Source: a virus (Duplodnaviria; Caudoviricetes). From it: 43,288 bases of DNA. A program made the translations under genes and the position numbers. The DNA lies in IMG/VR virus record IMGVR_UViG_3300017912_000540, positions 1-43,288 of that record. One strand, given 5' to 3'. Shown one piece after another: positions 11,624-35,100 of the stretch (its first letter is position 1; every line of letters starts with the position of its first letter). The notes beneath the pieces were generated by a model. It saw only the letters and a program-made list of their open reading frames with translations, had not been told where the DNA came from and did not search any database.

Positions 11624-12237
11624 TATCTTTGTAGTGCTCTGTAAGGTTGATAAGGTCTATATGAACTTTCATGCGGCCAGCCCATAAAGGAATGATCACC
11701 TTGATTACATTCATATTCAAGAACATTTGCCCTAGCAGCTTGCTCTTGTACTTGTAAAAGTGCAGCCAATTCTCTGTTGGCAACAAGCTGTGTAGCTGCA
11801 CGAACAGCAGCTTTAGAAATTATGTATCTCTGAAATATTGGTGGTACGTCTTCAAATGGATAGAGAGTAACAATGTCTAAATAAAGATCATCTTCAAATT
11901 GATCTGTATGACTTACCTTGTCGTATAGTCTTCCATTTCTTTTTACTAAATCTCTAGACTTATCTATGTGTGCATCATGTATGTCATAACGTAGATAATT
12001 ACTAGGTACTTCTATATATTTTGTTGTTGCATCTGGGGTAACAAGTACATGATCCTCAGTATTAAAATGCCATCCTTCACCCTGTACATCTTTATTTGCT
12101 TCTACTAATAAGTTATAGACAAATGCTGTTTCTGGGTTGTTGTAGTTGAGCGTAGTCAAGGGCGATTGACCTATGCTACCCAAGATTGAGTTAACTGCGG
12201 ATAGTTCGGTATCGGGTTGTATTGTTGTGGTAGCCAT
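11623..12237 (-). CDS. gp11: Tail tubular protein A
   Basis: TELSAVNSILGSIGQSP and GWHFNTE motifs; immediately after the capsid gene. Confidence 0.95.
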   Translation of the reverse strand: MATTTIQPDTELSAVNSILGSIGQSPLTTLNYNNPETAFVYNLLVEANKDVQGEGWHFNTEDHVLVTPDATTKYIEVPSNYLRYDIHDAHIDKSRDLVKRNGRLYDKVSHTDQFEDDLYLDIVTLYPFEDVPPIFQRYIISKAAVRAATQLVANRELAALLQVQEQAARANVLEYECNQGDHSFMGWPHESSYRPYQPYRALQR

Positions 12238-12241
12238 AGAT

Positions 12242-12267
12242 AAAAAAAAAGGGACCCGAAGGTCCCC
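12242..12267 (-). terminator. Intrinsic terminator after the capsid gene (T7 T-phi position)
   Basis: Minus strand GGGACC-TTCG-GGTCCC (cUUCGg tetraloop) followed by T9. Confidence 0.92.
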
Positions 12268-12281
12268 GATAAATGTATAAA

Positions 12282-13412
12282 TTAGAATGCAGAAGGAGCA
12301 GTAGCACCAACATATAGTTCAACAGCAGCAGCTGGGTTTAGGTAATCAGCACCCATAGCCATGCGACCTAAGATCACATCACCTTGGTAGATTACAGAAA
12401 CGTCACCGTTTGTTACTTGAACTTGTGGTCCAATAGCTTCAACAACACCAGCAGCTTCTTTCTGGAAAATTAAACCACATGACTTAGCACCTAACTCTGT
12501 GTTAGTACCGTAGTCGTTGTTGATTCCAGCAGTTGCGCCAGATGCGTTCTCAGGTGTAGGTCCAATGTGTGAACCAAGATTTCCAGGAGAAACCTCACCT
12601 GTTGTTCCGCCGTAAGCAACACCATACTTGCCAAGGAAAGGAATATTCATTGACTTGTAGATGTGGATTCCAGCGATTGAGACAACGCCTTTGCCAGATT
12701 GTAAACCAGCACCTTGCTCATCTCTATTGATTAGTCCATTGTTACCTACTTCTTGAATCAAGCTGTAGTATTGACGTGGGTTAAGTACCGCACATCTTCC
12801 TTGTGAACTAACTCCTTTCTCATCCATTGCAGCAGCAGCATCAAAGAAAGCATTTGTTAGGTTTTGAGCATTGTAAGCGTCAGAATCATTTGTTGTAGAT
12901 CCAACTCTGATCTGAGTTCCGCCAGGTTCTACAAAGTTTGTAGCAGAAACTGGAGATGCAGCTCTAGCTCCACGCGCAATAGCACGGAAGATTAGTCTGT
13001 CATATTTTTCAGCAAGTGCATATCCGATCTTCTTGGAGATTTCTCCTCTCAATTCGTAATGTGCAAGTGTCTCATCTAAGTCGTAAACGAACGCAGAGCT
13101 GATTAGTAGATCATCCATGTTGATGGTCTTTTCAGCTACTGGAGGAGCCTTGTCAGAATTACCTAAGATAGGAGTTCCAGGAGTGTGGAATGAACTTGTC
13201 ATTCTACCTGTGTAGATGAACTGTAGAGATTTTCCGTTCTTTAAGGTTCTCTTAGTTACGAGATCTCTAGCGATAGTCTCGTGTTGGAAGCCTTTGAACA
13301 TCTCTCCACTGAACAGCTTCAGGTACAGCGCATACTTATCCGTTGCGCCGTCATAGCCAGTACCAGTCGATAAATTAATACGACCTAAACCGACCTGATT
13401 AGCATTAGCCAT
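12282..13412 (-). CDS. gp10: Major capsid protein
   Basis: ALYLKLFSGE, GKSLQF and DDLLISSAFVYDLDE motifs of T7 gp10. Confidence 0.97.
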   Translation of the reverse strand: MANANQVGLGRINLSTGTGYDGATDKYALYLKLFSGEMFKGFQHETIARDLVTKRTLKNGKSLQFIYTGRMTSSFHTPGTPILGNSDKAPPVAEKTINMDDLLISSAFVYDLDETLAHYELRGEISKKIGYALAEKYDRLIFRAIARGARAASPVSATNFVEPGGTQIRVGSTTNDSDAYNAQNLTNAFFDAAAAMDEKGVSSQGRCAVLNPRQYYSLIQEVGNNGLINRDEQGAGLQSGKGVVSIAGIHIYKSMNIPFLGKYGVAYGGTTGEVSPGNLGSHIGPTPENASGATAGINNDYGTNTELGAKSCGLIFQKEAAGVVEAIGPQVQVTNGDVSVIYQGDVILGRMAMGADYLNPAAAVELYVGATAPSAF

Positions 13413-13555
13413 TTTTCAGTTAAAAGTTAAAGGTATATTTGTATGTCTCTACGCGTAAAAAGTTGTGAGTCTTACTTGGACTCAATTGATATGTGGTCTA
13501 TCCCACCGTCTAGACGGCTGATTGGTATCCTCCTTGGAGGGCAAAAAGCCAAATT

Positions 13556-13600
13556 GAGTAGGGAGGACTTGCACCTCCCAGACTGCTTAACCAATTACTC
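13556..13600 (-). ncRNA. tRNA-like element D (acceptor-like stem plus T-arm)
   Basis: GAGTA-[16 nt]-GGGAGG-TGCAAGT-CCTCCC-TACTC-AATT. Confidence 0.6.
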
Positions 13601-13640
13601 TTGTGTAAGCAACGCCACGATATACGAAAGTAACTTTCAT
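13587..13640 (-). CDS. 17-aa YRG micropeptide (DUF4278-like) downstream of the riboswitch
   Basis: MKVTFVYRGVAYTRVIG*, with a GGAGA Shine-Dalgarno 6 nt upstream. The YRGVxY motif is the hallmark of peptides downstream of Downstream-peptide RNAs. Confidence 0.85.
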   Translation of the reverse strand: MKVTFVYRGVAYTRVIG

Positions 13641-13656
13641 GTGTCATCTCCATATA

Positions 13657-13707
13657 CCAAAGCCCCGTTCCATGCTTTGGAGTCATGCGTCCCGTAAGGG
13701 ATGAACG
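13657..13707 (-). ncRNA. Downstream-peptide RNA motif (glutamine-II riboswitch)
   Basis: CGUUC...GAACG closing helix, internal UCCC-UUAC-GGGA hairpin and CCAAAGC/GCUUUGG pseudoknot, directly upstream of a YRG peptide. Confidence 0.85.
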
Positions 13708-13716
13708 GACGTAGCG

Positions 13717-13914
13717 TTAGTAAGAAGGATCACCTATTGGATCTTCCTTCTTTTTATATTCTTCTTGTCTATATTCCTCTAGTAATTTATCTACCTGTTT
13801 CTGTAGTTTTAGAATTTCTGGATCTTGTGTTTTCATACTGTTCCAATGGCGGATAACGCCAGAGCATATAAATAAGTTAGTGATTAAAGTTAGATATAAA
13901 CAAAAATTTTTCAA
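13717..13914 (-). CDS. Hypothetical small membrane protein
   Basis: 65 aa with an N-terminal hydrophobic segment and coiled-coil tail; start overlaps the psbA stop (ATGA). Confidence 0.65.
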
Positions 13915-14990
13915 CCAATTTCTGGAGCTGTTAGTGCAATGTGTGTTAACTCAGCCGAAGCTAAATCAAGTGGGAAGTTATGAGCATTACGTTCATGCAT
14001 AACTTCAAATCCGAGGTTGGCTCTGTTTAATACATCAGCCCATGTTGGGATTATCTTTCCGTTAACATCAACTACTGACTGGTTAAAGTTAAAACCGTTA
14101 AGGTTGAAAGCCATAGTACTGATTCCCATGGAGGTAAGCCATATGCCAACCACGGGGAAAGCACCAAGAAAGAAATGTAGAGCACGAGAATTATTGAAAG
14201 AAGCATATTGAAATATCAATCTCCCAAAGTACCCGTGTGCAGCGACAATATTATATGTCTCTTCATCTTGCCCAAACTTATAGCCATAGTTCTGCGATAC
14301 CTCGTCTGTCGTTTCCTTAATAAGTGAGGAAGTAACCAGACTTCCATGCATAGCAGCAAACAAAGCTCCACCGAATACCCCAGCAACACCAGCCATGTGG
14401 AATGGGTGCATGAGGATATTATGCTCAGCTTGGAATACGAACATAAAGTTAAAAGTACCAGAGATACCAAGAGGCATACCATCACTGAAACTCCCCTGCC
14501 CAAATGGGTACACGAGGAAAACAGCAAGAGCTGCTGATAGTGGTGCTGTATATGCTACGAATATCCATGGTCGCATTCCTAATCTGTAAGATAGTTCCCA
14601 CTGTCTACCAGCATATGCTGCTACTCCTATTAAGAAGTGGAAGACAATAAATTGATATGGTCCGCCGTTGTATAACCACTCATCTAAAGTGCCGGCTTCC
14701 CAGATCGGATAAAAGTGCAGTCCTATTGCATTGGAGCTTGGAACTACTGCTCCAGAAATAATATTGTTTCCGTACATTAACGAGCCGGAAACTGGCTCAC
14801 GTATGCCATCTATATCTACAGGCGGTGCTGCGATGAAGGCGAGTATAAAGCATGTGGTTGCAGCTAGTAAGCAAGGAATCATAAGTACTCCAAACCAACC
14901 TACATAAAGGCGGTTCTCGGTACTTGTGACCCACTCACAAAACTTCTGCCAGTTGGATGTGCTTTCTCTAGTTACTGAGATTGCAATCAT
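13911..14990 (-). CDS. psbA: Photosystem II D1 protein
   Basis: [23 protein letters not shown] and [13 protein letters not shown]; uninterrupted 359 aa. Confidence 0.99.
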
Positions 14991-15182
14991 TTAGAATACT
15001 CCAGGAATTATTTGTCCTGTTGTTGCATATGCTCCTAGAGCTGCAACTATGCCAAGCATTGCTGCCCAGCCATTAAATCTTTCTGCTTCTGGTGACATTA
15101 GTTTTCGTTTTGGTAATAGTTGTATAGGGGGTTCGTACGCATACTCGTTTTCGAGCAGCGTATCGAGGTCTTTAGTTTTCAT
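14991..15182 (-). CDS. hli: High-light-inducible protein (chlorophyll a/b-binding motif) with N-terminal extension
   Basis: AERFNGWAAMLG...TGQIIPGVF signature. Confidence 0.95.
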   Translation of the reverse strand: MKTKDLDTLLENEYAYEPPIQLLPKRKLMSPEAERFNGWAAMLGIVAALGAYATTGQIIPGVF

Positions 15183-15973
15183 TAAAATTGAAGGTCTGAT
15201 CTATTTAGTTTCTCCACAACATCAGCACGATATGCTGGATCATTGTCGTAACGAGGGTCAGCCATAGCTTGTACTAATTGAGCTTGACTTCTGAATACAT
15301 CGCCTTTATTATCAGCAGCTTTGCCTGAGAGCATTCTTCCTTCGTAGCCATTTGCATTATCGTATTTAGATTTAAGTGCATCAACGCCTAGTTGAATTGC
15401 AGCTGCATTGCCTGTGCCTACTAAATTATCAAATGCTTTTATCTCATGTGCTTTGAGATTATCACTTGCCCAAGTAACTAATTTATTGTATTCAGCTTCT
15501 CCTCCTACGGAGTTCTGTATCTTATTAATTTCTTGATTAGTGACATCTACTTCTGCCTGAGCTGGTGGTGCATTCTTTTGCATCTCCATGTAAGCCTGAA
15601 CTAAATCTTGGCTGCTCATTTCAGAAAACTTTTCTAAAGTTTCTGGAGATAATTTATTATCATTTGCAAAGTATTCTTCGTTAGCAGATTCTATTAATAA
15701 AACTGCTTCACTTTTTTCAGCTTTAGGTTCTTCCGAATCTTTTACTTCTTCGGTTTCTTCCCGCCCTTCTTGTGATACGCCATCTTCTTTCTCTCCTAAT
15801 TTTTTTTGTAATTCTACGTATGCCTTTTCTAAGTCTTCGGCATTCTTATATTTACCAGCAAGTAATTCACCTTGCTCTTCTACCATCTTCTCCCCAACTT
15901 GCAAAGAGTCTTGCTCTTCAGAAGTTAAACCTTCTTGTTGAGGTGTATCATTTACTGTTAATGTTTCTGCCAT
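15182..15973 (-). CDS. gp9: Capsid assembly scaffold protein
   Basis: Acidic protein with LLAGKYK..EDLEKAY and AMADPRYDNDPAYR motifs. Confidence 0.93.
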   Translation of the reverse strand: MAETLTVNDTPQQEGLTSEEQDSLQVGEKMVEEQGELLAGKYKNAEDLEKAYVELQKKLGEKEDGVSQEGREETEEVKDSEEPKAEKSEAVLLIESANEEYFANDNKLSPETLEKFSEMSSQDLVQAYMEMQKNAPPAQAEVDVTNQEINKIQNSVGGEAEYNKLVTWASDNLKAHEIKAFDNLVGTGNAAAIQLGVDALKSKYDNANGYEGRMLSGKAADNKGDVFRSQAQLVQAMADPRYDNDPAYRADVVEKLNRSDLQF

Positions 15974-25842: not shown

Positions 25843-28178
25843 TAACAGAAAAAATAAGTGGATTCAATTACGGATTCCGGTTTAAGGTCTCCAATAATCG
25901 GTGGTTCAGTCTTTGCATTAATTGCTTTTGCAAAGTCTTTTAAAAAATCATGCTCCGCAAACAGGTGCATGTATGTGTCCCGTACCAATGTGGACAGGTT
26001 AGTCATATCTGTAGCCCTACATAGAACTGAATCATGTATAAGAGCTATAGGTGCATTAAATTTAGTAGCACTTAAATGTAATAAGCTTGCGTCTAATGAA
26101 TGGATTAAGTTTGGTGCTGTCGCATTCTTGTGATGTCTAAGGTCTACGCCCTTCTCTCCGTCCATAACCTTTATTCGACAACGACCCATTAAATGTAGTT
26201 CAACATTTTTGTGATCGTATTTCATAAGGCGTTGGTTCACTCTGAAACCAGAGGGAGTTACCCAAGTAATCTCTTCAGCTCCTTCCTTAATTGCATTAGA
26301 CACCTCTTGTTCAATCCATCGCATAACCTTCATAGGTCCTGGTACGACTGCCTCCATGGCATCTCTAACGGCTTTAACAATTTGCGTTAGTTCATCATTA
26401 TCAACCTCAATATCTATATCTTCAAATGCATCTCGAATATATTGTCTATTGCTAAAAGGCTTTGCGTTATACGGTATCGTCATCACACATCTTTTAGTTT
26501 TCTTTCTATCCCAGTAAGGTTTTAATCTTTCAGGTATATGTTCTAGACTTTTCTCTGCAATAACTCTATAAGCATCTTGAGGTTTATCACTTGGTATTAC
26601 ATTGACCAAGCTTGCCGTGGACTTATCCCTTGCTAAACCTGCCAGTATCTGTAGACCTGAGCATGTTGCATCGGTTGCCACGGGTAATCCTGTAATAGGT
26701 CTATCAAAGACCATACAGCAATGGAAGTATTCTTCACATGCAGCCAAGAATTGGAACGGTTCGTCTGCTGCTTCCCAATCTCCTATGTTGTTGATTGGGT
26801 CTGTTGCTACTCGTTTGATTAACTTTATATTTTCTGGTTCGTTTACCCAAGCTAACCGCTCCTCCATAGTCGCTTTATCAAGACCATAAGTTGTAGCCAC
26901 TTGGAAAGCTAACCATTTCATCCCATCCTCAGTTATAGGTGCTTCATCAGCAAACCTAATTAAACTTTTTCCAAAGTCTGTATCTTGAGGTGTTAAGAAG
27001 CTAGGTATTGGATATGCTCTACCACGATAGTCGAAACTCCAAGGAATAAAGTACTCCTTGTCTTTAAACTCTCTGACACAATTCATTGTCATCCGAGTTC
27101 TACAAGAGATCCTCCACTCATTAGCATTCTTATTACGTGCTATTGCTTTATCCTTTCTCCATTGTTTTCTACTCTCTTCATCCTCCATATCTGGAGGTTT
27201 AGGAGGGTCGGGATGATTAATAACAGGACGAAATTTTCCTACCTCTATTTCTCTCTCCTCTAGTTCTTCCGCAACCATTACTATGAATGGGTTTAAACGG
27301 TATTTAACTTTCTGTATTTCATTAAGGAATTGATAGGTAGTTTCCCCCTGTATACGTAGGGGTTTACCCCTTCTCACCATTTCATGGCATTTAGTTAAAT
27401 CATTTAGATAATATCCACCGTCATGCATAGGAGACCAATCTCTTGGTTCAATGAGCATCGGCCACGCCAATGGGCTAAATAATTCAGCTAATCTTATAAT
27501 TTCTTCCTTATTTTTATGAAACTTATCTGTAGGTACAACGAACTGTTGTGTCTTGCCACGATGCATGGAAAGTTCTCTTTCAAACCATTCAGAGGATTCC
27601 ATTAGGCAATCTAAAAACCAAGTTCCTACCTTGATACGTTCAATCCTGTTCCATGGCTTCCATCGTTCTAAGTCTTCGTGTTTATTCATCAAGGTTGTCA
27701 TGGATTTAGCTTTGTAAGCTGTACCTTTTGCTTGATGCCAATAATTTTTCTTTAATGTCTCAAAAAGCCCTGGAGCACTGGATTCATAGTATCTCATCTG
27801 GCATTCAGCCTCTAAAGCCGAACCGATTGCCTGTACGACATTAGCGACCTTGCTATTGTCCTTACGTGGGGAGAATATCTTATCAAAGGTTATCTTTGCA
27901 GTTATTGCTGCTTGCGATTCTGAATCGAGAGAAATTAAATAAGGTATTAAAAGTAATTGTCTACCTACTAATAACTTCTGTCTTTCTTCTTTCTTTCTAT
28001 CAATATATTGTACTAAATAGGGCAAAAGGGTTTCTATTGATGACGAACCAAAAACTGTGGCTGAAGCATAATCCTTGTCTAATAGCTTTTTAGTATTTGA
28101 CCTGAATCGCTCTAAACCACCCTTAATCTGTTTCCGTTCAAACCTCTCTTGCATCTCTAAATCAGCAGTTGTAGGCAT
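25842..28178 (-). CDS. gp1: Single-subunit phage RNA polymerase (short 778-aa cyanophage type)
   Basis: DYRGRAY, DATCSGLQ, KRCVMTIPY, PNLIHSLD and IHDS motifs. Confidence 0.98.
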   Translation of the reverse strand: MPTTADLEMQERFERKQIKGGLERFRSNTKKLLDKDYASATVFGSSSIETLLPYLVQYIDRKKEERQKLLVGRQLLLIPYLISLDSESQAAITAKITFDKIFSPRKDNSKVANVVQAIGSALEAECQMRYYESSAPGLFETLKKNYWHQAKGTAYKAKSMTTLMNKHEDLERWKPWNRIERIKVGTWFLDCLMESSEWFERELSMHRGKTQQFVVPTDKFHKNKEEIIRLAELFSPLAWPMLIEPRDWSPMHDGGYYLNDLTKCHEMVRRGKPLRIQGETTYQFLNEIQKVKYRLNPFIVMVAEELEEREIEVGKFRPVINHPDPPKPPDMEDEESRKQWRKDKAIARNKNANEWRISCRTRMTMNCVREFKDKEYFIPWSFDYRGRAYPIPSFLTPQDTDFGKSLIRFADEAPITEDGMKWLAFQVATTYGLDKATMEERLAWVNEPENIKLIKRVATDPINNIGDWEAADEPFQFLAACEEYFHCCMVFDRPITGLPVATDATCSGLQILAGLARDKSTASLVNVIPSDKPQDAYRVIAEKSLEHIPERLKPYWDRKKTKRCVMTIPYNAKPFSNRQYIRDAFEDIDIEVDNDELTQIVKAVRDAMEAVVPGPMKVMRWIEQEVSNAIKEGAEEITWVTPSGFRVNQRLMKYDHKNVELHLMGRCRIKVMDGEKGVDLRHHKNATAPNLIHSLDASLLHLSATKFNAPIALIHDSVLCRATDMTNLSTLVRDTYMHLFAEHDFLKDFAKAINAKTEPPIIGDLKPESVIESTYFFC

Positions 28179-32834: not shown

Positions 32835-32870
32835 GAGTAAATAAAAGGCTACTCTCATTGAGTAGCAATT

Positions 32871-32909
32871 GATGTGGTCGGAGTTGAACCGACCTTAAAC
32901 CCTTACATC
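32871..32909 (-). ncRNA. tRNA-like element B
   Basis: GATGT-[10 nt]-GGTCGG-TTCAACT-CCGACC-ACATC-AATT, then hairpin GCTACTC/GAGTAGC and a U-rich tail. Confidence 0.6.
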
Positions 32910-33220
32910 TAGTAGGCATAACCATCAAGTGACTCGATTAATAATCGTTCGTCAGTGTTGACAGTGAAATTGGTGAGGTCATAGGTCATGACCCCTGTTT
33001 GTACGTTGTATCTGTTCTGTTGAACAGCACCCCTTAGTCCTTGAACCCAGAACCCAAGAGACATGCAGTCATTAATCATTAAATTAATGAGCTTTAATCT
33101 GCTGACGTTGCGGTATGTGTACTCGTTGCCGTTGCGATACCTAACAACTGCGACCTTACGTAAAGGACTAACTGCGATAGCTTCAACAGCTTTGCTGTAA
33201 CGTCTTTTGATAGTGAACAT
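32909..33220 (-). CDS. First early gene, hypothetical
   Basis: Likely start MFTIKRR; Y.NG.EY.Y.NVSR...SLGFWV motif. Confidence 0.7.
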   Translation of the reverse strand: MFTIKRRYSKAVEAIAVSPLRKVAVVRYRNGNEYTYRNVSRLKLINLMINDCMSLGFWVQGLRGAVQQNRYNVQTGVMTYDLTNFTVNTDERLLIESLDGYAY

Positions 33221-33280
33221 GGAATTAAAAATAAATTTACAATTTATCCTTGATTGCATGATATGCAAATGTGGATAAGT

Positions 33281-33326
33281 GGCAGGCATGGACTTGAACC
33301 ACGCTGTAAGCCTCATACTTACTGCC
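33281..33326 (-). ncRNA. tRNA-like element A
   Basis: GGCAG-[17 nt with TAAG/CTTA hairpin]-GCGTGG-TTCAAGT-CCATGC-CTGCC-ACTT. Confidence 0.6.
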
Positions 33327-33510
33327 TTGCTTCCGTTTAATGCTCCACTCTGTCCCCGACTACGTTCTTGTACTCGTCTTATCAGGTCTACAGCTTATCA
33401 AGGCTGCGCTGTTACGTTTTATCCTCGACTTGCTTTGCATCTAGGCAGTTTCGAGCTACTTAAGCCAGTTAACAATCGTTTTGATTGAAAGCTTGTTGTT
33501 ATGTCTTGAG

Positions 33511-34926: not shown

Positions 34927-35100
34927 ATATAGTGATGTTAATAGAACTCTCTACTCAGAACCCTTTAGGGAAGTGGAGAGTAGTGTTTTAAAGTGATATC
35001 ATTCACGGATATCTATTAAAAGGAAGGAGTCGCTGGTTTTAGCAGTCTCACTCCTCCCCTACAAGGGTCCACCCTTCCCCTGTATACGTAGGGGTTAAGG

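Follow-up and report, generated by a model that had tools for sequence, protein, structure and literature searches.

Structured signals at the junctions of a long polycistron are familiar from coliphage T7, in which RNase III sites in the early region and among the structural genes are cut by a host nuclease. A tRNA-based counterpart is known from plant mitochondria: in Arabidopsis, tRNAs, t-elements and acceptor-like stem-loops lie at mRNA ends, where the action of RNase P and RNase Z has been proposed (PMC1920247). Both enzymes recognise the acceptor/T helix and the elbow (PMC4810234, PMC7479834); RNase Z contacts the T-arm and acceptor stem, its cleavage is suppressed by a C after the discriminator, and it is inhibited by long 5' extensions (PMC7479834). 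Cyanobacteria possess both enzymes (PMC10989914). Micro-pre-tRNAs, which retain an acceptor and T helix of about 12 bp but lack the D and anticodon arms, are cleaved by tRNase Z 3' of the discriminator (PMC9141469), and the phage RNAs cut by RNase P include the C4 antisense RNA, M3 RNA, T4 gene 32 mRNA and T4 pre-tRNAs (PMC11143913). Glutamine-II (Downstream-peptide) RNAs sit ahead of open reading frames (ORFs) of 17–100 aa (PMC2864571), which are mostly DUF4278/IF17-like; reporter output from a Prochlorococcus (type-2) aptamer rises after ammonium (PMC6212724). Marine-phage glutamine riboswitches have already been published (PMC9004378). Among T7-like cyanophages, more than 37 kb of Syn5 is transcribed from one promoter (PMC3950665), and genes 13–28 of P-SSP7 are middle and 29–51 late (PMC7885011, citing Lindell 2007).

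We analyzed a 43,288-nt stretch of viral DNA (the window) from a T7-like cyanopodovirus near P-SSP7, with 92.7% identity to that phage over the region and 90.7% in gp10. ORFs, synteny and Pfam gave the minus-strand gene order psbA, small ORF, riboswitch/element region and gp10 (Table 1). The small ORF had no convincing match in a Pfam scan. As P-SSP7 genes 13–28 are middle and 29–51 late, the interval ahead of gp10 corresponds to the gene 28/29 middle/late boundary of that phage. A first-pass annotation had recognised four parts within 13413..13716, namely a Downstream-peptide riboswitch, a 17-aa YRG ORF, a tRNA-like element (D) and a structured capsid leader, and we found all four on the minus strand.

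Table 1. Features of the window discussed in the text
Feature	Position	Strand	Basis
psbA (D1), upstream middle-class gene	13911..14990	-	ORF and translation; synteny with annotated P-SSP7 psbA
Small ORF in the position of P-SSP7 gene 28, last middle-class gene	13717..13914	-	ORF, synteny
Glutamine-II (Downstream-peptide) riboswitch aptamer	13656..13710	-	Rfam RF01704
Predicted hairpin pairing the GGAG site with codons of the peptide ORF	13619..13658	-	-11.4 kcal/mol, z -3.13
17-aa YRG micropeptide ORF, DUF4278/IF17-like; stop within element D	13587..13640	-	ORF translation
Element D, anticodon-less mini-tRNA	13554..13601	-	Fold; register and covariation in 71 relatives; 13 complete genomes
Leader hairpin 1, long irregular stem starting 2-3 nt after the discriminator	13515..13553	-	Covariation in 65 leaders
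Self-complementary palindrome 1, no loop	13505..13518	-	Core varies, stays palindromic
Leader hairpin 2, purine-rich loop	13493..13506	-	Leader alignment
Small hairpin scored terminator-like; variable in relatives	13466..13484	-	Terminator scan
Self-complementary palindrome 2, G.U-tolerant, no loop	13446..13461	-	Palindrome search
gp10 major capsid gene, start at 13412	12282..13412	-	Pfam PF21703 Gp10A-like, E 2.6e-73
Phage RNA polymerase promoter candidate, copy 1 of exact 20-nt repeat, within polymerase gene	27345..27364	-	Repeat search
Phage RNA polymerase promoter candidate, copy 2, after terminase and ahead of talC	35077..35096	-	Repeat search; talC by Pfam
Second early-region mini-tRNA copy; overlaps stop of ORF 33316-32909	32869..32910	-	z -3.33
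Early-region mini-tRNA copy, same architecture as D	33279..33327	-	z -2.82; counterpart in P-SSP7 at 602

Element D is 48 nt long. With +1 at 13601, its 5' stem strand (13600-13596) is followed by a 16-nt loop-out (13595-13580), a 6-bp T-stem (13579-13574/13566-13561) bearing a 7-nt T-loop closed by G-C, the 3' strand (13560-13556) and a discriminator-like A at 13554. The acceptor-like helix is a 5-bp stem plus an A.A, giving with the T-stem 11 bp and one A.A step; two A follow the 3' strand and no CCA is encoded. As had been noticed initially, D overlaps the end of the YRG ORF, whose last codons form the 5' strand and whose stop lies at +13 to +15. D is not a tRNA gene, having no anticodon arm and yielding no ARAGORN call, and it had no Rfam match at E<=1. 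It folds only modestly better than shuffled sequence by itself (z -1.72); its support is the covariation in relatives described below. A stem/T-loop descriptor found three elements in the window (13601, 32910 and 33327) compared with 0.03 per shuffled window, none of 200 shuffles containing three. Weak Rfam matches to PYLIS_3, RAGATH-25, sbrA and antisense PhotoRC-I were rejected, and readings as a self-cleaving ribozyme, an iron-responsive element or an attP remnant were discarded, as Rfam gave no match, the stem geometry does not fit, and a different part of the window carries an attP-like tRNA fragment.

Capsid leaders were collected from relatives without using D: 80 loci by capsid homology (80 of the 582 matches found), 120 by the downstream leader motif (of an estimated 2400 or so), three of four isolate genomes and the window. 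This gave 146 distinct leaders preceded by 130 nt or more, and 144 after two from non-cyanophage tRNA arrays (L095 and L202) were set aside. The slot directly 5' of the leader is occupied in 144/144, by a D-type element in 71, an unrelated hairpin in 67 and a full tRNA-shaped element in six (the types of L085, L177, L205 and L158 were assigned by hand), counts that overstate independence since many loci are close relatives. The hairpin type has around 10 bp beneath a conserved 15-nt core and no canonical T-loop, its step count being a by-eye reading. The tRNA-shaped occupants lack CCA; ARAGORN called three of them (two tRNA-Gly, one tRNA-Leu), and two of the other three exceed the Rfam tRNA threshold (RF00005). 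In Rfam searches of the window and 40 related loci, neither D nor the hairpin type nor the leader had an acceptable match.

In tRNA numbering, 2-3 nt separate the discriminator from the leader's GG in 144/144 leaders; a count of 12 steps from the T-loop was built into our script, and the 7-bp acceptor stems of the six tRNA-shaped occupants give the numbering independently. The base 3' of the discriminator is U in 141 leaders and C in none, and no encoded CCA was found in the 144. The acceptor-like stem of the D type covaries, with 4.83 of 6 pairs formed compared with 3.94 ± 0.12 when permuted (0 of 5000; 29 distinct 3' strands); a permutation test was used because MAFFT had misaligned D's 5' strand. 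Little sequence is conserved outside the T-arm, and T-loop residues U54, C56 and A58 are each present in 68/69 D-type elements. Position 55 is G in 49/69, positions 1 and 72 are mismatched in 41/71, and GG occurs in just 40/69 loop-outs (the window's included), so a true tRNA elbow is not assured. The two main slot types require 11 changes on a tree of 50 capsids, nine of the changes being forced by well-supported branches, and near-identical capsids carry different types. The common register may be partly inherited, since recombination swaps inside the conserved leader would preserve it.

Searching for the hairpin type returned 105 distinct matches, 91 of them with the capsid motif downstream and most of the others capsid-like by eye. 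The exceptions were one before psbA (L332), one before another gene (L313) and one apparent chance match; the discriminator and UU trailer of L332 and L313 are as in the capsid slot. Cellular genomes yielded 19 matches, of which 16 look like chance and three have full stems and leader-like sequence, two of these in Prochlorococcus single-cell genomes and taken as phage DNA. In a core variant (for example, L071 and L076) we take the apical loop to be that of the iron-responsive element, with an upper stem too short for that family.

Several slots held unusual arrangements. Shortened tRNA-Gly(UCC)-like genes missed by ARAGORN occupy three of them (L143, L144 and L163) and are possible intermediates between tRNA and mini-tRNA. 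In L088 (559-672, minus strand) the occupant is an odd tRNA called Leu(AAG), with an abiF RNA match (47.8 bits) ahead of it. One contig (L269 and L192) carries two leader-like modules some 600-700 nt apart, one D-type and one hairpin-type before the capsid gene. In the two tRNA arrays set aside (L095:463-560 and L202:249-350), the capsid-leader hairpin motif lies 3' of tRNA-Leu(UAA) with its partner strand downstream rather than upstream; the L095 motif had no Rfam match.

We also searched complete genomes for the element. Thirteen genomes, the window included, gave 34 matches compared with 3.9 in shuffles. In 11 of the 13 an element lies 157-208 nt ahead of the capsid start (seven D-type, four hairpin-type); 15 further matches, in nine genomes, are sense-strand copies in the early region, and the other eight are probably chance. 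Among the 15 early copies, U follows the discriminator in 13 and C in none, the flanks are unrelated, and seven overlap an ORF stop as we read the annotations. The scan missed P60 and S-CBP2, where by eye a T-arm element lies over the stop of the scaffold gene. An exact-match scan for the T-arm at 33304 returned three loci.

The longest sense-strand repeat of the window is an exact 20-nt sequence (27364 and 35096), which is likely to be a phage promoter. The same search recovered the proven Syn5 promoter at two places equivalent to the window's, and equivalent repeat pairs were found in P-SSP7, P-SSP2, P-SSP10, S-TIP37, S-SBP1 and S-RIP2. The window's polymerase and terminase genes were named from synteny and length by comparison with P-SSP7. 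The second copy precedes talC, which would explain why talC is middle-class. These are the only two promoter-like repeats in the window, the nearer about 14 kb upstream of gp10. No copy occurs near gp10, the best match in 13413-15200 having 6 mismatches in 16, and the riboswitch, ORF, D and gp10 therefore probably share one transcript. The Syn5 promoter itself had no match within 3 mismatches in a scan of the window, and a sigma-70 scan of 12200-14000 found no site upstream of the riboswitch.

Other features of the window and its relatives were recorded. A strong terminator-like hairpin and U run lies at 12267-12250 (minus strand), immediately 3' of gp10, a position that we take to be that of T7's T-phi. 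About 39 nt similar to the 5' part of tRNA-Leu(UAA) lie at 28357-28319 (minus strand), between an integrase-sized ORF and the polymerase gene; this is presumably attP (cf. the L202 tRNA-Leu). A motif of 15-17 nt is repeated ahead of early/middle genes (30474, 28196, 31454, 24797 and 21716, minus strand) and may be a site of translation initiation or of binding. The capsid genes of L013, L022 and L039 contain some 220-230 nt of additional DNA, and L091 (924-1018) has a sub-threshold group I intron match close to its capsid start; these are possible introns in the capsid gene.

Downstream of the slot, the capsid leader is itself structured. Hairpin 1 was analyzed in 65 of the 114 distinct leaders aligned, where 97.6% of cells are paired and 68 cells changed on both sides compared with 24.3 in shuffles. 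Hairpin 2 is invariant by construction, as it was the search anchor; compensatory variants were found in L042, L067 and the hairpin-type scan. Palindrome 2, at a half-length of at least 5, is present in 129/137 leaders (12 different cores) compared with 21% of shuffles. The loop-less, G.U-tolerant palindromes 13518-13505 and 13461-13446, whose cores vary while remaining self-complementary, suggest possible dimerisation signals of the capsid mRNA.

Together, we consider D to be probably a punctuation mark where host RNase P and RNase Z cut the phage transcript, releasing the capsid mRNA. We infer the cleavages, their order and an effect on mRNA stability from the structure, covariation, register, occupant swaps, early copies and promoter absence. 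RNase P would cut before 13601 and RNase Z then after 13554; given that long 5' extensions inhibit RNase Z, RNase P must cut first in this scheme. The freed capsid mRNA would begin 2-3 nt ahead of the covarying stem, which would be protective. Because the peptide's stop lies inside D, the 5' cut would leave the peptide message without a stop; more generally, with RNase P acting first, the stop of the upstream gene would be removed in most D-type loci, the stop of some ORF, including psbA and unrelated ORFs, lying within D in 60/64. Translating ribosomes may delay the folding of D, a possible secondary tuning and not the reason why the slot exists. An RNase Z gene was found in one of two partial Prochlorococcus genomes and in the S. 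elongatus control. We set aside public RNA contigs as cleavage evidence, as contigs give neither ends nor strand: one transcriptome contig ends at 13617, three metatranscriptomes are uncovered at 13530-13589, where an unlabelled run is continuous, one loose end in that interval proved to be of hairpin-type sequence, and the palindrome is itself a point where contigs begin.

The riboswitch is a full-length match to RF01704 (model 1-60; 52.4 bits, gathering score 33 bits, E 5.4e-10), bearing out the identity first assigned to it. The nucleotides of the ligand-pocket pseudoknot, linker and long-range pair named in PMC6698751 are kept, on by-eye comparison of the alignment. As in the RF01704 family, it directly precedes a short ORF with a ribosome site, here GGAG (13651-13648) 7 nt ahead of the ATG. 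The predicted hairpin over this site is closed with or without a forced aptamer, so that the site is paired in both modelled states (pseudoknot energy left out). Eight of 12 longer homologues of the peptide match DUF4278 (PF14105; E 3.6e-5 to 0.04, all below the 25.3-bit cut-off), and the DUF4278 label comes from these, the 17-aa peptide of the window being under the 20-aa minimum of the Pfam scan. A 58-codon frame starting in the aptamer was rejected as a gene, being open for at least 50 codons in only 4/57 loci and having no Pfam match. Among loci with at least 280 nt upstream, the YRG ORF is present in 83/134 and the riboswitch signature in 54/64 D-type, 25/65 hairpin-type and 0/5 tRNA-shaped loci; 55/134 have no nearby riboswitch. 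In P-SSP10 the riboswitch lies 3' of psbA, about 1.2 kb and four ORFs away from the capsid gene. Given this patchiness and the position in P-SSP10, the glutamine-II riboswitch and YRG ORF are an optional upstream cassette, one that most likely controls the peptide itself.

An elaboration of the punctuation scheme, which we put forward tentatively, is that T7-like cyanophages express their genome as one or two giant transcripts, punctuated by translation-gated mini-tRNAs. D would fold and be cut only in the absence of a ribosome completing the upstream gene, the cut would strip its stop and free the late capsid mRNA, the glutamine-switched micropeptide would be the gate through which nitrogen sets the middle-to-late hand-over, and the palindromes would dimerise the capsid mRNA.

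The first-pass annotation had proposed a coupling to host nitrogen status, which we weighed as the main function: glutamine would control translation of the peptide, ribosomes would unfold D, and processing or stability of the capsid mRNA would track nitrogen. As the main function this seems unlikely to us. The aptamer is intact, a type-2 host aptamer responds to ammonium in a reporter (PMC6212724), a ribosome on the peptide's last codons would cover D's 5' stem strand, and the riboswitch is found more often with the D type than with the hairpin type. What stands of the proposal is the probable single transcript and an overlap that is conserved where D is present, the peptide's stop lying inside D in 48/53 D-type loci with the peptide; within the D type, the overlap thus is kept as the coupling would have it. 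Against this, the overlap occurs in 0/30 hairpin-type loci with the peptide, the stop position ranges from +3 to +18, and the ribosome site is paired in both modelled states. Synteny likewise divided: the slot is always filled, but only 46 of the 134 loci with sufficient upstream sequence combine riboswitch, overlapping peptide and D (our script overlooked a further four, in which the peptide begins with GTG). Moreover, the cassette is optional, Syn5 has D but no riboswitch or YRG ORF in the sequence examined, and the P-SSP10 riboswitch is far from the capsid gene. D-type elements also cover the stops of psbA, scaffold and early genes without any riboswitch, and a stop overlap is found in 9/65 of the hairpin type, seven of these being 22-codon frames of doubtful reality. 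The stop overlap belongs to D, not to the peptide.

We give similarly little credence to a second alternative, that the elements, instead of being cut by tRNA enzymes, act as folded obstacles to RNase J or PNPase, or as guides that position an RNase E cut in the short A/U linker, and so keep the decay of middle mRNA separate from that of late mRNA. Cyanobacteria possess RNase J and RNase E, the linker is A/U-rich, RNase E sites in single-stranded RNA are marked by A at -3 and U at +2 (PMC8682795), and a stable hairpin of any kind could suffice, in keeping with the hairpin type. However, the linker between the two helices has just 3-4 unpaired nt; a roadblock needs neither the T-loop, the constant helix length nor the avoidance of C after the discriminator, and the full tRNA genes found in the slot are natural substrates of RNase P and RNase Z. 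A further reading is improbable, in which mRNA cutting is incidental and what matters is the mini-tRNA once excised, a small decoy for, or regulator of, a tRNA-binding host factor. Cuts at both ends would free a 48-nt RNA, there are several copies per genome and a full tRNA-Gly can substitute; yet there is little sequence conservation outside the T-arm, an unrelated hairpin takes its place in 67/144 leaders, and position is tied to gene junctions. Finally, a transcription terminator or late-promoter part acting as DNA, as the middle/late boundary and GC-rich stem might suggest, is scarcely tenable, given that D was not scored as a terminator, that at most 4 U occur in the 8 nt after the stem in 66/71 D-type loci, that the best promoter-repeat match is as poor as stated above and none of the region's 14-mers has a sense-strand copy elsewhere, and that G.U pairs and covariation point to RNA.

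The reading as punctuation by RNase P and RNase Z, if correct, bears on a broader question. T7-like cyanophages show ordered early/middle/late expression, although no more than two phage promoters exist in Syn5, and a matching pair of sites is seen in the window; punctuation at the middle/late boundary would be a concrete answer to how the capsid mRNA becomes abundant and separately timed, and would extend an organelle-style mechanism to a very common group of ocean viruses. Two RNA families missing from Rfam emerge, with cut sites predicted to the nucleotide, as do candidate promoters for P-SSP7-like phages and a natural swap series of tRNA, mini-tRNA and hairpin for studying the substrate rules of RNase P and RNase Z. 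Should translation gate the cut, nitrogen status would be linked to virion production. Our literature search, mostly outside subscription journals and supplements, found no description of these elements; the riboswitch of these phages may be among the examples in the supplements of PMC2864571 and PMC6212724. What would be new here is t-element-like punctuation in a phage, the riboswitch and peptide being of a known kind.

Comparison with described systems places the locus as follows. It resembles published systems of a glutamine-II riboswitch and DUF4278/IF17-like ORF in its full-length match, pseudoknot nucleotides and downstream YRG ORF of 17 aa, and differs in being phage-borne, apparently within a polycistron without its own promoter, and in having an ORF that ends in a mini-tRNA. 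Like the RNase III sites of T7, the elements are junction signals in the early region and among structural genes, putatively read by a host nuclease; T7 sites, however, are long double-stranded stems, whereas the cyanophage elements are T-arm minihelices or tRNAs. The C4, M3 and T4 cases share the use of phage transcripts as host RNase P substrates, but in those cases a tRNA or regulatory RNA is matured, or the example stands alone, and the accessible part of that account describes no swappable pre-capsid slot (PMC11143913). Micro-pre-tRNAs have the same acceptor and T helix without an anticodon arm, although they are engineered, serve the mammalian long tRNase Z and are inhibited by 5' leaders of more than 8 nt (PMC9141469). 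The likeness to plant-mitochondrial t-elements extends to tRNA-like structures, real tRNAs including tRNA-Gly, stem-loops and, in some cases, overlap with the end of a reading frame (nad6, ccmC; PMC1920247). By contrast, the elements described here, known so far from sequence, belong to a bacteriophage of a free-living bacterium, lack the anticodon arm and occupy a slot in which three kinds of occupant interchange.
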